From the NCBI GenBank assembly GCA_964635715.1, contig CAZWNZ010000001.1:344274-408273 (forward strand): a DNA stretch of 64,000 nucleotides. Direction: 5' to 3'. Of this stretch, positions 28,876 through 33,438 are shown piece by piece. The notes under the pieces are model-generated. The model had not been told where the DNA came from and did not search any database. It was given only the letters and a program-made list of their open reading frames with translations. The DNA comes from an uncultured Gammaproteobacteria bacterium. Lineage in GTDB: Bacteria > Patescibacteriota > Microgenomatia > UBA8517. Position 1 is the stretch's first letter. Each line of letters opens with the position of its first letter. The position numbers and the translations under genes are program-made.

Positions 28876-29658
28876 ATGAAAAAAATACCGAAAATAAAAG
28901 CGTTTTTTGTGTTTTGTTTTATATTTTTAGTATTTTTATTGGCAGCAAGGGATTCTATAGCACAAGACGCGGCAGGAAGTGGTGTTGCCACATCAACATC
29001 GGTTTCAGGTAATTACAAGGACGGTGATTTAATTTGTGTGGACAAAGATAATATTAATGTTGCTTGTAATAAAGAATATGATTCAAATATGATTGGTGTG
29101 GTAGTGGAAAATCCAAGTGTTTCTTTTACCAGCAGTTCCGGAGGAGTACCGGTTGTTTCTTTGGGAAATGTTTACGCAAATGTTAGTAGTAAAAACGGAA
29201 TTATTCAAAAAGGAGATTTTATAACCAGTTCCAAAACGACAGGTGTTGGCCAGTTGGCTAAAAAAAGCGGATACATTTTAGGAGTAGCACTTGAAAATTA
29301 CGCGGATGAAAATCCTGATTCAATTGGCAAGATTCCCATAGCCGTAAATATTCGACCTGCAGTCCTTAGTGGAGGAGCCGGTAATAATTTGCTCGAACTG
29401 ATTAAGGAAGGTGTCTCCGGGGCGTTTGAAAGCCCATTGTCTGCGTTGAGGTATTTTGTAGCCGGAGTGTTAGTTGTTGTTAGTTTTGTTTTTGGTGTTT
29501 TACATTTTGGCAAGATGGCCAAAAGCGGAGTGGAGGCAATTGGGCGTAATCCACTGGCGGCAAAAACGATACAGTTTGGAATACTACTTAATGTTTTGAT
29601 AGCAATTGTTATTATGGCTGTGGGTTTGGGAATCGCCTATCTTGTTTTGGTTATTTAA
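28876..29658 (+). CDS. Secreted protein with C-terminal two-helix hairpin resembling an F-ATPase c subunit but lacking the conserved carboxylate
   Basis: Signal-like N-terminus (...AARDSIAQ) and a ~170-aa ectodomain. The C-terminus [51 protein letters not shown] aligns by eye with E. coli c-subunit (...[44 protein letters not shown]). The D61-equivalent is Ile here. Confidence 0.5.
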
Positions 29659-29667
29659 ATCATTAAT

Positions 29668-30957
29668 ATGATTCATTCCTTTGAATTTTCTAAAGAAAAA
29701 ACAAAAGATGTTGGCAAAATAAATGCCATTAATGGCATTATGGTTAAAGTTGGTGGTTTTAAATTTGGAACTATCGGCGAAGGTGTAACTTTTGAAAACA
29801 ATATTCACGGAAGGATTGTTTCGATAAGTGAAGACTTATGTGAAGTAATGGTTTTTAATAAGAGGCCGATGAATATCGGGCAAAAAGCCGCCAGGACAGG
29901 GGAGCCTATCAGTATTTCTATAGGTAACGGACTTTTAACACACGTTATTAGTCCACTTGGTTATGTGATGGATGAAAGAAGAGATGAAAGTATCAGCCCT
30001 GAGTCGCGTTTTATTGATCAAAAACCCATAGGCATTTGCGGAAGAAAAAAAATAAATAAATTTTTGACCACGGGAGTGTCTATAGTTGATTTAATGGTTC
30101 CTATAGGTGAAGGGCAGAGAGAGCTGGTGATAGGAGATAGAAAAAGTGGTAAAAGCTATTTTCTTTTGTCGACAATAGTTACACAGGCACGTTCCGGAAA
30201 AATATGCGTAATTGCCTTAATTGGTAAAGAGAAAAGTGAGATTAAAGCTACTGAAGAACTTTTGGAGAAAGAAGGAGTAATAGATAAATGTGTTTTGGTA
30301 GCTTCTGCATCGCATGATTCTGCGGGAGAGATATTTTTGACACCATACACCGCAATGTCAGTAGCTGAGTATTTTCGCGATCAAGGCAAGAATACCGTTG
30401 TTATTCTTGATGACATGACCACTCATGCAAAGTATTATCGTGAATGGGCACTTCTTTCAGGACGTTTCCCTGGCAGAGAAAGCTATCCCGGAGATATTTT
30501 TCATATACAATCACAAATCATTGAAAGAGCTGGAAATTTTCTGATTGACGGAAAAGAAGTGTCAATAACACTTTTACCGGTAGCAGAGACATTGGAATCG
30601 GATTTAACCGGATATATACAAACAAATCTTATGAGCATGACTGACGGCCACATCTTTTTTGATAGCAACTTGTTTTTTAAAGGGATAAGACCGGCTGTAA
30701 ATATTTTTCTGTCTGTTACCCGTGTTGGCAGGCAAACACAGCCTCAAAAAATGAAGGAAATTTCCTCAGAAGTTATTAAAATATTAAAAAGAAAGGAAAG
30801 TTTAGAGAGATTTTTGAAATTCGGACCGGAGGTTACAGAAGAAGTAAAGAGAATTTTGAATACGGGGGATGCTATCTGGAATTTCTTTAGTCAAAATACA
30901 TATGGTGGGGTTTCTGTTTCAGATCAAGTTAAAGAAATTGAAAAAATACTAAAATGA
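29668..30957 (+). CDS. atpA: F1-ATPase alpha-subunit-like protein (shortened C-terminal domain)
   Basis: Walker A GDRKSGKS (canonical alpha GDRQTGKT). FPGRESYPGDIFHIQSQIIERA and TNLMSMTDGHIFFDSNLFFKGIRPAVNIFLSVTRVG match conserved alpha segments. 429 aa versus ~500. Confidence 0.85.
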   Translation: MIHSFEFSKEKTKDVGKINAINGIMVKVGGFKFGTIGEGVTFENNIHGRIVSISEDLCEVMVFNKRPMNIGQKAARTGEPISISIGNGLLTHVISPLGYVMDERRDESISPESRFIDQKPIGICGRKKINKFLTTGVSIVDLMVPIGEGQRELVIGDRKSGKSYFLLSTIVTQARSGKICVIALIGKEKSEIKATEELLEKEGVIDKCVLVASASHDSAGEIFLTPYTAMSVAEYFRDQGKNTVVILDDMTTHAKYYREWALLSGRFPGRESYPGDIFHIQSQIIERAGNFLIDGKEVSITLLPVAETLESDLTGYIQTNLMSMTDGHIFFDSNLFFKGIRPAVNIFLSVTRVGRQTQPQKMKEISSEVIKILKRKESLERFLKFGPEVTEEVKRILNTGDAIWNFFSQNTYGGVSVSDQVKEIEKILK

Positions 30958-31808
30958 AAACCGTTAAAACTGTTACCAAGGATATAAAAGATATGGGAGA
31001 AATAAGAGGTTTACTTGAAGTGTTTGAGGAAATGGCTGCCTCAAAAATGCAAAAGATAAGGAAAAGTGTAGTCTCTTCTAAAGAATATTTCGAAGGGCTG
31101 GCAAGAATATCAGAAGATGTGGCCCTTGATATTACCGATAATGGATTGAGAAATGGAAAGAAAGCTGCACTATTTTTATCGGCAGACGCAGGACTTTTTG
31201 GTGATATTGTAGAAAAGATATTAGTTGACTTTGTTGACTATGCGCAAAAACAGAAAGCTGACGCTTTTGTCTTGGGAACTTTAGGAAAAAATCTTTTAAA
31301 AGTATATGCGCCCCGTTTTAAATTTGAGTCTTTTAACTTTCCCATAGATGGTTATCAGATAGATGATGTAAATTTAAAATTTGTTCTTCAGAGACTCTCA
31401 CAGTATGAAAAAGTTTCAATTTTCCATGGTCAGTTTTTGACAATTGCAACACAAAAAGCAACATTTTCAAATATGTCAGGCGGTAGTATCGCAGATTTGG
31501 GTTATTCGTTTGATAAGGATGAAGCTGCTAAAATACGTATAAAGAATATTTACGAACCTTCTATTGGAGTAGTTGGAGAAAAATTTGCCAAAGAAATATC
31601 AGTATCGATTTTTTCTCAATCTGTACAGGAAAATCAGTTGGCAAAATATGCAGCGAGACTAATACACTTGGATTCAGCCTTGGAAAATATAGATCAGAAG
31701 CTTGGGTTGTTTAATCAGGAAAGATCCAGGATGCGTAAGAAGGCGGAACAAAAAAGGCAAGTTGAAAGAATTTCCAGAATGGTCTCTTTAAAAAAGGTAT
31801 TTATATGA
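30954..31808 (+). CDS. atpG: F1-ATPase gamma-subunit-like protein
   Basis: N-terminal [24 protein letters not shown] resembles the gamma N-terminal helix (...MVAASKMRK); helical C-terminus; operon position between alpha and beta. Confidence 0.65.
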
Positions 31809-33178
31809 GAAAAATTACAGGAATTTTAAAAGAAATAACAGGTGAGGTTGCTAAGGTTAATTTTGATGGAGAAAAGCCGTTTATAAATGAAGTTTGCGTC
31901 AACAAAAGGGGGTCAAAAATGTATGTATATTCTTCCGACGGCGACAATTGTTTGTATCTTTATATTTTAAGTGGAAACGATAAGGTGTCAAGCGGAGATG
32001 AAATTATTGCAACAGGGAAGACCTTAACGATACCTGTAGGTAAAGAGATTTTGGGTAGAGTAATTGATGTTTTTGGTGAGGCTGTCGATGATGGTAAGGA
32101 GTTAAAAAGCTGCAGAGAGAAAGGAATTTTTGATTGGAACGTTGATTACTCCGATGTTGTTACCACACGCGATATTTGGGAAACGGGTATCAAGGTGTTG
32201 GATTTTTTTTCTCCTCTTGTCAAGGGAGGTAAAACAGGTCTTTTTGGCGGTGCCGGTGTTGGAAAAACCATTCTTTTAACGGAAATAATGCATAATGTTT
32301 TTACTGCCAGAGAAAATGGGAAAGATCACGACGTTGTATCCGTTTTTACAGGAGTCGGGGAGAGAATTAGGGAAGGTCAAGAACTTTGGAAGGAGCTTGG
32401 AGACAGAAAAGTTTTGGATAAAACCGCTCTAATTTATGGTCTGATGGGTGAGAATCCGGCGGTAAGATTGTTAACTGCAACAGCAGGTGCGGCCATTGCA
32501 GAAGATTTTCGTGATCAGGAGGGAAAGGATGTGCTTTTCTTTATTGATAATATTTTCCGTTTTGCTCAAGCCGGAAGTGAGCTTTCTACATTAACACGAA
32601 ATACACCTTCAGAAGATGGGTATCAACCAACGCTGGTTTCGGAGATGTCTGCCTTTCACGAAAGGCTTGTTTCAACAAAAAAAGGGGTCATAAGTTCAAT
32701 TGAGGCAATTTACGTTCCTTCAGATGATCAACTTGATCAAGGTGTCCAGTCAATTTTTCCATATCTTGATTCTAAGGTAAGTTTGTCCAGAGATATTTAT
32801 CAAAGTGGAATTTTCCCTGCAGTTGATATTCTTAATTCAGGATCGTCAATTCTCAGTGTTAATAATGTCGGTGAGAAACATTATAAGGCAGTAATTGAAG
32901 CCTTATCTGTTCTTAAGAAGGCCCAGGAATTAGAAAGAATGGTGGCTTTGGTTGGAGAGGGAGAACTTTCACCTGCTAATCAGCTAGTTTACAAAAGGGC
33001 CAAGTTGATTAGAAACTATATGACTCAGCCCTTCTTTGCGGTATCTGCTCAAACAGGAAAGGAAGGAAAATATGTACCATTTAAGCAAACGGTTGACGAT
33101 GTTACGGATATACTGGCAGGAAAGCTTGATAATAAAAACCCGGAAGATTTTCTATTTATCGGTGGAATAGAAAAGTAA
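31805..33178 (+). CDS. atpD: F1-ATPase beta-subunit-like protein
   Basis: P-loop [11 protein letters not shown], catalytic GVGERIREG, and [36 protein letters not shown]. The DELSEED-equivalent is GELSPAN. Confidence 0.9.
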
Positions 33179-33180
33179 TC

Positions 33181-33438
33181 TTGCTATTTGTTATGAATAC
33201 CATTCAGGCTCTTATCAGAAACAAAAACGGGATAGTTTTTGAAGGTAATGTTTTTGCCGTCTCTTCGACTAATGATGTTGGACCCTTTGATATACTTCCC
33301 GGTCATGCAAATTTTATCTGTATTATTAAAAATAAATTAATCATTCATCATTCAAAGATAAAAAAAGAAGAGATGGACGTGGATAGTGGAATTTTAAGAG
33401 TAAAAGATAACAAAATTGAAATATATTTAGGAATATAA
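33181..33438 (+). CDS. atpC: F1-ATPase epsilon-subunit-like protein, N-terminal beta-sandwich only
   Basis: VFEGNVFAVSSTNDVGPFDILPGHANFICIIK matches the epsilon N-domain (..PGSEGELGILPGHAPLLT..). 85 aa; the C-terminal helical domain is absent. Confidence 0.6.
   Translation: MLFVMNTIQALIRNKNGIVFEGNVFAVSSTNDVGPFDILPGHANFICIIKNKLIIHHSKIKKEEMDVDSGILRVKDNKIEIYLGI

Follow-up and report, generated by a model that had tools for sequence, protein, structure and literature searches.

An F-type ATPase operon of Microgenomatia with a carboxylate-free, domain-fused c subunit and a reduced set of subunits

Bacteria of the Candidate Phyla Radiation (CPR), or Patescibacteria, pose a standing puzzle, in that nearly all of them keep an F-type ATP synthase while having no electron transport chain. 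The usual answer is that the enzyme runs backwards and thereby provides membrane potential, and reviews up to 2026 class the ATPases of CPR bacteria with the ordinary F or V/A types (PMC11665869, PMC13293708). The locus analysed here raises the question of what such an enzyme could be doing when its c-like subunit has no ion-binding carboxylate and no subunit a is encoded beside it. The locus lies in a stretch of 64,000 nt of contig CAZWNZ010000001.1 (hereafter, the window), whose host is an ultra-small CPR bacterium of the Microgenomates type, and had been singled out in an original prediction as a divergent F1-ATPase-like operon. Calling of open reading frames (ORFs) revealed five tightly coupled genes on the plus strand, spanning 28876-33438, which encode a c-like fusion protein, termed c', followed by alpha, gamma, beta and a short epsilon.

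28876-29658, plus strand: c-like fusion protein c', 260 residues, comprising a signal peptide, a beta domain, a long helix and a c hairpin
29668-30957, plus strand: F1 alpha, 429 residues, with P-loop GDRKSGKS at 30133-30156 (residues 156-163) and Arg finger SVTRVG at 30712-30729
30954-31808, plus strand: F1 gamma, 284 residues, divergent, with ATGA overlaps at both ends
31805-33178, plus strand: F1 beta, 457 residues, with Walker A GGAGVGKT at 32246-32269 and Walker B DNIFRF at 32546-32563
33181-33438, plus strand: epsilon, 85 residues, N-terminal beta-sandwich alone, TTG start

Subunits encoded by the operon

The c' protein displays a signal peptide (residues 1-30, cleavage after SIA) followed by a beta "tulip" domain of ~135 residues (~33-165) that contains the conserved pair Cys54/Cys64, an extended helix continuous with the first transmembrane segment (TM1; residues 168-222), a GRNP loop (residues 223-226; 29542-29553) and a second transmembrane segment (TM2; residues 226-259). 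The AlphaFold model, with a predicted local distance difference test (pLDDT) score of 85.6, comprises a signal/transmembrane helix at residues 4-23, an all-beta region at 36-162 with pLDDT above 90, one continuous helix at 168-222, the GRNP turn and a final helix at 226-259. Searches of Pfam and NCBIfam with the window c' returned no significant match. A family profile from an alignment of 27 homologues matched ATP synthase c subunits only across the whole PDB (best match 9itj_H, E 0.006), while comparison by hhalign of the 95 C-terminal columns with seven canonical c sequences gave P 5.6e-5 over 70 gapless columns extending across both helices. PF00137 was reached by one of the 27 relatives (E 0.008), and several relatives are named "subunit c" by the Joint Genome Institute (JGI) pipeline. 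The alignment of the c' C-terminus with c subunits, proposed as a check of the original prediction, supports the c-like assignment through the PDB profile match and the hhalign score.

In both alignments, Asp61 of the E. coli subunit aligns with Ile244 of c' (29605-29607). This canonical carboxylate position, located at +18 when counted from the loop Pro, is occupied by I, V, L, A, G, M, F or S and by Asp or Glu in none of the 193 unique c' relatives, and TM1 is free of acidic residues in 192 of these 193 sequences. The description of the operon's sole membrane component as a carboxylate-free c-like hairpin fused to a secreted domain is therefore upheld. TM2 carries other polar residues, with Asn (169 sequences; Asn239 in the window) or His (23 sequences) at position +13 and Gln, or in 13 sequences Glu, at position +7, and the GxGxGxG packing motif is missing from TM1. 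Conservation across the family peaks in the loop region around the invariant GRNP, which keeps the R(Q/N)P and the preceding Glu of canonical c; in E. coli c, residues E37, R41 and P43 face gamma and epsilon. Taken together, the signal peptide, the Cys pair and the positively charged loop place the N-terminal domain outside the cell and the loop in the cytoplasm, as in the topology of canonical c. As judged from these alignments and from gene order, c' is a c-subunit hairpin in the atpE position in which the F1-docking loop is kept and the membrane carboxylate is gone.

The fold of the exported domain is that of phage capsid decoration proteins and of the C-terminal autochaperone of phi29 gp12, at an identity of just 13-18%, and weak matches to Pfam Phage_cement and XM1_gp53 were obtained for the same region. 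Unlike its counterparts in the phage decoration or cement proteins and in gp12, the domain of c' is fused to a membrane hairpin and encoded in a cellular operon. Three members of the family (P0242, P0258 and P0266) are longer, at 446-522 residues, owing to ~230-300 additional residues that precede the usual architecture at the N-terminus.

The four remaining genes were matched by the corresponding Pfam families (alpha, PF00006, 3e-62; beta, PF00006, 1e-59; gamma, PF00231, 4e-17; epsilon, PF02823, 2e-9). F-type NCBIfam models were the best match for all four subunits, yet the scores fell below the equivalog cut-offs: alpha scored 333 against 484 (TIGR00962) and 373 against 554 (PRK13343), beta 435 against 463, gamma 46 against 194 and epsilon 36 against 67. 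In the PDB, both alpha and beta find their nearest relatives among true bacterial F1 structures, with beta reaching 385 bits with the Fusobacterium F1, 375 with that of Caldalkalibacillus, 297 with the Mycoplasma mobile G1-ATPase and ~105 with V-type and type III secretion system (T3SS) ATPases. In addition to the Walker motifs, beta contains the catalytic GERIREG at 32357-32377, while GELSPAN, at 32960-32980, replaces DELSEED. Alpha lacks its final ~50-60 residues, corresponding to about half of the C-terminal domain (positions 1-65 of the 126 in the Pfam model are kept), and epsilon lacks the regulatory helices. The genes are separated by a 9-nt gap (c'/alpha), two ATGA overlaps and a 2-nt gap (beta/epsilon). 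Judged by these matches, alpha, beta, gamma and epsilon are derived from an ordinary bacterial F1, and the residues for ATP hydrolysis are retained.

Most of the original prediction concerning F1 agrees with these data. The five ORFs have exactly the order, coordinates and tight junctions proposed; the nucleotide-binding motifs from which a catalytically competent head had been surmised were located in alpha and beta, with the catalytic residues kept; GELSPAN was found in the place of DELSEED; the PF02823 match is confined to the beta-sandwich, as expected of an epsilon reduced to that domain; and the suggested comparison of alpha and beta with other ATPase families came out in favour of the F-type by NCBIfam and PDB scores. 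The proposal that alpha had lost most of its C-terminal domain needs amendment, as the truncation is real and only about half of the domain is gone.

Other families fit less well. Similarity to FliI/T3SS and to V/A-type ATPases amounted to ~100-200 bits, against 333-435 for the F-type. The N-type ATPase resembles the window operon in lacking delta and in having an F-like operon, and alt_F1F0 models do match alpha, beta, gamma and epsilon; the scores are nevertheless low against the cut-offs (alpha 304 against 750, beta 384 against 752, gamma 17 against 282, epsilon 19 against 100), beta scores 384 bits compared with 435 for the F-type, and the gene order differs. N-type operons have the order beta-epsilon-Q-R-a-c-b-alpha-gamma and include both subunit a and a carboxylate-bearing c. 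The F1-like ATPases of mycoplasmas were likewise rejected as the identity of the window proteins, with glide_MMOB1660 scoring 339 against 600 (alpha), glide_MMOB1670 374 against 850 (beta), MSC_0619 252 against 520 and MSC_0618 361 against 570; these models place the window alpha and beta lower than canonical F1 models do.

Absent subunits and distribution among relatives

The original prediction stated that no subunit a, b or delta is encoded at this locus, and a six-frame search of the whole window, which also covered canonical c, detected none of them. Profiles built on the relatives' own subunits (53 b-like and 55 delta sequences) found nothing in the window, and the E. coli subunit a sequence, used as a query, gave no match in the window or in any related locus. 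The loci of relatives (designated L followed by a number) were read as pieces of ~20 kb, on which all gene-order and flank counts given here rest. Within ~10 kb of the operon, in ~85 related loci amounting to ~1.1 Mb of flanks, no a-like or recurrent polytopic protein was present; a hydrophobicity scan of these flanks identified 21 polytopic proteins, none syntenic and none with an R-x-x-x-N motif. No second alpha/beta set occurs in any fetched flank. In the window, the genes near the operon encode an ABC exporter, a 7TM_transglut protein, ATP-grasp enzymes and prenyl synthases. Two candidates were discarded: the gene for ~311 residues upstream of c' in Levybacteria, considered as a possible subunit a, encodes a Fic/DOC protein with a helix-turn-helix (HTH) domain, and a second "alpha-like" gene in L084 encodes Rho. 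In canonical enzymes the essential Arg of subunit a works against the c carboxylate, and the loss of a would thus be consistent with the absence of that carboxylate in c'.

The c' family is widespread. A protein search returned 168 homologues, nearly all of 240-290 residues, assigned to Woesebacteria, Microgenomates and Patescibacteria. When one genome was scanned for each GTDB species, a c' relative was encoded in at least 346 species genomes, belonging to Woese-, Levy-, Ames- and Shapirobacteria, Microgenomatus and WWE3, and an exhaustive profile search (E<=1e-30) identified at least 543 representatives of 50% identity clusters. Many of the metagenome-assembled genomes that carry c' bear placeholder "Gammaproteobacteria" labels. 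In 57 related loci the genes are arranged as c'-[phosphoglycerate mutase]-b-like-delta-alpha-gamma-beta-epsilon, where delta passes the Pfam OSCP cut-off and the b-like protein consists of an N-terminal transmembrane helix and a long helix. By gene order, then, c' takes the place of atpE, and the operon is that of an ordinary F-type enzyme apart from the missing atpB. The bracketed gene, which encodes a 2,3-bisphosphoglycerate-independent phosphoglycerate mutase and lies between c' and the b-like gene, was observed in L006 (4303-5991) and in ~28 other loci.

A smaller set of 16 fetched loci, window included, displays the order c'-alpha-gamma-beta-epsilon without b and delta; duplicate fetches are counted here, and the set represents about a dozen genomes. 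In a neighbour-joining tree of alpha and beta, the genomes lacking b and delta form one deep clade, within which beta identity drops to 50-58% (the label of L072 is wrong in this tree; L072 does have b and delta). The length of alpha after the Arg finger follows the same division, with a median of 139 residues where b and delta are present, as in the canonical protein, and 125 in the clade without them, falling to 75-80 residues in the window, L008, L011 and L013 only. The alpha C-terminal lengths and the gene losses thus describe a stepwise reduction of which the window is the most reduced form. Of 66 full-length betas, 45 contain all three catalytic motifs when strict patterns are applied, and almost every one retains Walker A and the motif of the catalytic Glu. 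The ratio of nonsynonymous to synonymous substitution rates (dN/dS) was 0.07-0.22 relative to L011 and, for c', 0.14 relative to L008; the values are indicative only, since dS is saturated relative to L008 for four of the five operon genes. At that indicative level, the ratios point to purifying selection on the operon genes of the clade that lacks b and delta.

Conservation of the architecture across so large a lineage argues that it is not an assembly artefact. A mobile-element or prophage origin, which the excisionase-like HTH flanks and the phage-like domain might suggest, was also rejected, as the composition of the operon matches that of its surroundings, no tRNA is adjacent and synteny is conserved class-wide. 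Since most relatives keep b and delta, the window operon is not an isolated oddity; nor, within the window and the flanks read, does it look like a second paralogous system. As read from gene order and relatives, it appears to be the lineage's own F-type operon, in the most reduced form of a class-wide variant. Its likeness to canonical F1Fo (atpBEFHAGDC) resides in alpha and beta, which are nearest to F1, in gamma and the epsilon N-terminal domain, in the atpE position of c' and in the order c-b-delta-alpha-gamma-beta-epsilon of most relatives, whereas the canonical enzyme has the c carboxylate, subunits a, b and delta, a full alpha and the epsilon helices, and no exported domain at the N-terminus of c.

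The ProAD survey recorded 20 F/N-type sets whose c lacks the essential carboxylate, which were labelled "non-catalytic"; its sets required subunit a, and incomplete sets in Patescibacteria were put down to genome incompleteness or poor assemblies (PMC11738941). It contains no description of the fused exported domain, the class-wide spread or the loss of b and delta seen here. Our literature search found no description of a carboxylate-free, domain-fused c or of an F-type operon without a in CPR.

Possible functions of the complex

The reading we favour, if tentatively, since we hold it with somewhat less than even confidence, is that of an ATP-hydrolysing F1 docked on an ion-incompetent c' ring, with a mechanical or surface-directed output. 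The combination of a missing H+- or Na+-binding carboxylate and a missing subunit a would make ion translocation by the F-type mechanism impossible and, with it, both ATP synthesis from a gradient and the pumping of ions; ATP is probably spent on work unrelated to forming or exploiting an ion gradient. In such a complex, alpha3beta3-gamma-epsilon would assemble on a c' oligomer, presumably a ring, through the cytoplasmic loop and the epsilon beta-sandwich, and would act as an ATP-hydrolysing motor that turns, or tensions, this ring. The long outward helices of c' and a crown of tulip domains at the cell surface may then engage the wall or the giant fibre-like protein encoded next to the operon (described below). 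In its working, the window system would come closest to an F1 motor.

Functionally, its closest analogue is the G1 gliding motor of M. mobile. The Type 2 (M. mobile G1, MMOB1660/1670, PDB 9io5) and Type 3 (MSC_0618/0619) ATPases of mycoplasmas are similarly F1-derived motors, and their similarity to the window proteins was detected by NCBIfam and in the PDB. They are thought to do mechanical work at the surface rather than ATP synthesis, the M. mobile motor being associated with giant surface proteins. In contrast to the mycoplasma ATPases, which lack a c-like subunit and exist as additional paralogues next to a normal F1Fo, the window operon appears to be the F-type operon of its lineage modified in place. 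A more specific proposal, which we consider quite improbable at present, is that the ATP synthase of Microgenomatia was turned into an ATP-driven surface machine in which the c' ring, with its outward helical collar and tulip crown, would pass torque or tension through the membrane to the envelope and to the giant fibre. Giants often carry the same tulip domain as c', which, like the divergent pairing of giant gene and operon, also speaks for the broader reading of a surface-directed output: the c' N-domain profile matches inside 13 giant proteins of related loci, mostly near their C-terminus, and phage fibres carry a trimerising autochaperone at this end. If true, surface motors driven by F1 would have arisen a second time, independently of Mycoplasma gliding, and for the first time with the c-ring itself as transmission.

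Several points weigh against the favoured reading. The function is inferred from what the operon lacks, and subunit a could be encoded elsewhere, the search having covered the 64-kb window and ~10-kb flanks of relatives; the mechanical or transport role surmised in the original prediction is therefore likewise putative. A crown turned by ATP is physically plausible for the majority of relatives, which possess b and delta. No stator could be recognised in the window's clade; a purely rotary output is then physically problematic, and either some other protein has to keep alpha3beta3 in place or the mechanism is of a non-rotary kind. Ring formation is itself assumed, TM1 lacking GxGxGxG, and tulip-type domains are usually trimeric. 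The polar residues of TM2 (Asn/His at +13; at +7 Gln and, in a few sequences, Glu) could accommodate an ion site of an unconventional kind, and a profile search for the tulip domain was negative in the giant protein of the window itself.

The alternative of a conventional ion-coupled F1Fo builds on the same TM2 residues. It holds that subunit a (in this clade together with b and delta) has its gene at another site of the genome or has diverged beyond recognition, that c' has a non-canonical ion site and that the enzyme runs in reverse to build membrane potential. Such a role is the one that the literature assigns to CPR F-type ATPases (PMC11665869, PMC13293708), most relatives retain the stator subunits b and delta, and the search for a was confined to the window and the flanks of relatives. 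We nevertheless regard this alternative as unlikely, because all characterised F-, N-, V- and A-type rotors use a membrane Asp or Glu, which none of the 193 c' sequences has at this site, because atpB normally stays with atpE and yet no a lies beside c' in ~85 loci, because a whole clade that lacks b and delta appears to be under purifying selection, and because the six-frame search of the window found no a, b, delta or canonical c. A further alternative, which corresponds to the transport option of the original prediction and has the absence of a stator in the window's clade in its favour, is a non-rotary device, in which c' tethers F1 and ATP binding or hydrolysis gates or energises the passage of a lipid, peptide or nucleic acid through or alongside a c' oligomer and its outer collar. 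The continuous outward helix 168-222 of the AlphaFold model could form such a collar, and CPR bacteria rely on building blocks taken up from outside (PMC7143001). This proposal is, in our estimation, rather improbable: no F1 is known to serve as a gate, the rotor shaft formed by gamma and epsilon is retained and conserved, and the stator of most relatives makes sense for rotation only.

It might finally be argued that the operon is a functionless relic of an ATP synthase, left to decay as the genome shrank. The stepwise loss of the carboxylate and a, then of b and delta, and then of the alpha C-terminus could be read in this way, the operon is fragmented in one related locus (L005) and some Microgenomates have no ATP synthase at all (PMC7143001). 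Decay is, however, difficult to reconcile with intact reading frames joined by translational-coupling overlaps, with conserved catalytic motifs, with dN/dS ratios of 0.07-0.22, with the high conservation of the c' loop and N-domain over 346 species and with the persistence of the form lacking b and delta in a deep clade in which beta identity descends to ~50%; we consider this explanation highly improbable.

For one large class of organisms, the carriers of c', the assumption of a reverse-running ATP synthase fails on sequence grounds, and a metabolic reconstruction in which such genomes are scored as "F-type ATPase present" probably misjudges what the enzyme does. The series of progressively reduced forms constitutes a natural experiment on the parts that an F1 motor needs, and c', its giant neighbour and the intergenic operator candidate provide concrete targets for structure and expression work in organisms that cannot yet be cultivated.

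The divergent giant gene and neighbouring regions

The region upstream of c' contains a long gene in divergent orientation and an intergenic segment with repeated elements, and a small HTH gene follows the operon.

23945-28741, minus strand: giant protein, 1598 residues, with an N-terminal MerR/HTH_17 domain, one transmembrane helix at residue ~92 and a fibre-like extracellular part of ~1500 residues
28685-28875, no strand assigned: divergent intergenic region, candidate operator/promoter, with back-to-back -35-like TTGAC boxes
28712-28721 and 28735-28742: inverted pair of the intergenic region, AAACTGGACA and TGTCCAAG, respectively
28788-28817: intergenic repeat, CCAAAATC-CT-GATTTTGG with one further copy of GATTTTGG, followed closely by a -35-like CTTGAC
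33677-33895, plus strand: small MerR/BldC/excisionase-type HTH protein, 72 residues, paralogue of the N-terminus of the giant

The real start of the giant gene is probably the ATG at 28684. Its extracellular part is long and repetitive, with a weak match to phage tail fibres. A large minus-strand gene lies divergently upstream of c' in 67 of the 75 loci with enough upstream sequence, and a homologous HTH followed by a transmembrane helix was detected in 45 of these 67 upstream giants, some of which in relatives also carry Peptidase_S74 autochaperone domains. This conserved pairing of giant and operon suggests co-regulation or co-function, neither of which is proven. The membrane-anchored giants, which range from 600 to more than 3300 residues and are found also in L017, L031, L033, L067, L073, L074 and others, start with a cytoplasmic DNA-binding domain of the MerR type and so represent an odd fusion of transcription factor and surface fibre. 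The original prediction had placed excisionase-type HTH proteins on both sides of the operon; this is correct for the downstream side, where the 72-residue protein is located, while the upstream HTH is the N-terminus of the 1598-residue surface giant. The small protein recurs downstream of the operon in L001, L005, L008 and L024, all of the clade that lacks b and delta.

The 8-mer TGTCCAAG is enriched 16-fold in the 1.5 kb upstream of c' (0.53 against 0.033 per kb) and occurs there in 36 of 78 loci, among them L001, L008, L010, L017, L018, L020, L027, L031, L067, L077 and L079. It is often accompanied by an inverted copy 10-17 nt away and tracks the 5' end of the giant gene, being present at 28 of 54 HTH-giant genes compared with 3 of 15 small HTH genes. 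These properties make TGTCCAAG a candidate operator for the MerR-like HTH. Related "TTTTGGCCAAGnTTTTG" strings were observed at the same place as the intergenic repeat in L001, L008 and L010.

The spacing between giant and c' varies among relatives. L006 (2266-3505) and L007 (5151-6212) have an AT-rich spacer of ~1.1-1.2 kb without an ORF of at least 60 residues; an Rfam search yielded nothing in the 1.2-kb spacer of L006 and, in the window, tRNAs only. In Levybacteria-type loci, the Fic/DOC-like protein of ~311 residues, with its C-terminal HTH, is encoded between the giant and c', ~1 kb upstream of the latter (L027, L036, L049, L056, L057, L063, L064, L069, L070, L073, L076 and L080). Downstream of the window operon, at 35925-40023, the 7TM_transglut membrane protein gene is followed by three ATP-grasp (RimK/ATPgrasp_ST) genes, a block that also lies downstream of the operon in L005 (18324-20768). 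On the far side of the giant, at 17404-23108, the window contains a mevalonate/isoprenoid cluster in which a polyprenyl synthase and an undecaprenyl pyrophosphate (UPP) synthase were confirmed by Pfam, while the mevalonate kinase-, diphosphomevalonate decarboxylase-, isopentenyl phosphate kinase- and IDI-like genes were recognised from their translations only. GC skew is positive in 30 of the 32 two-kb bins of the window, and the cumulative skew climbs almost monotonically to 3.4, which recalls the strand composition disparity of a complete Microgenomates genome (PMC7143001).

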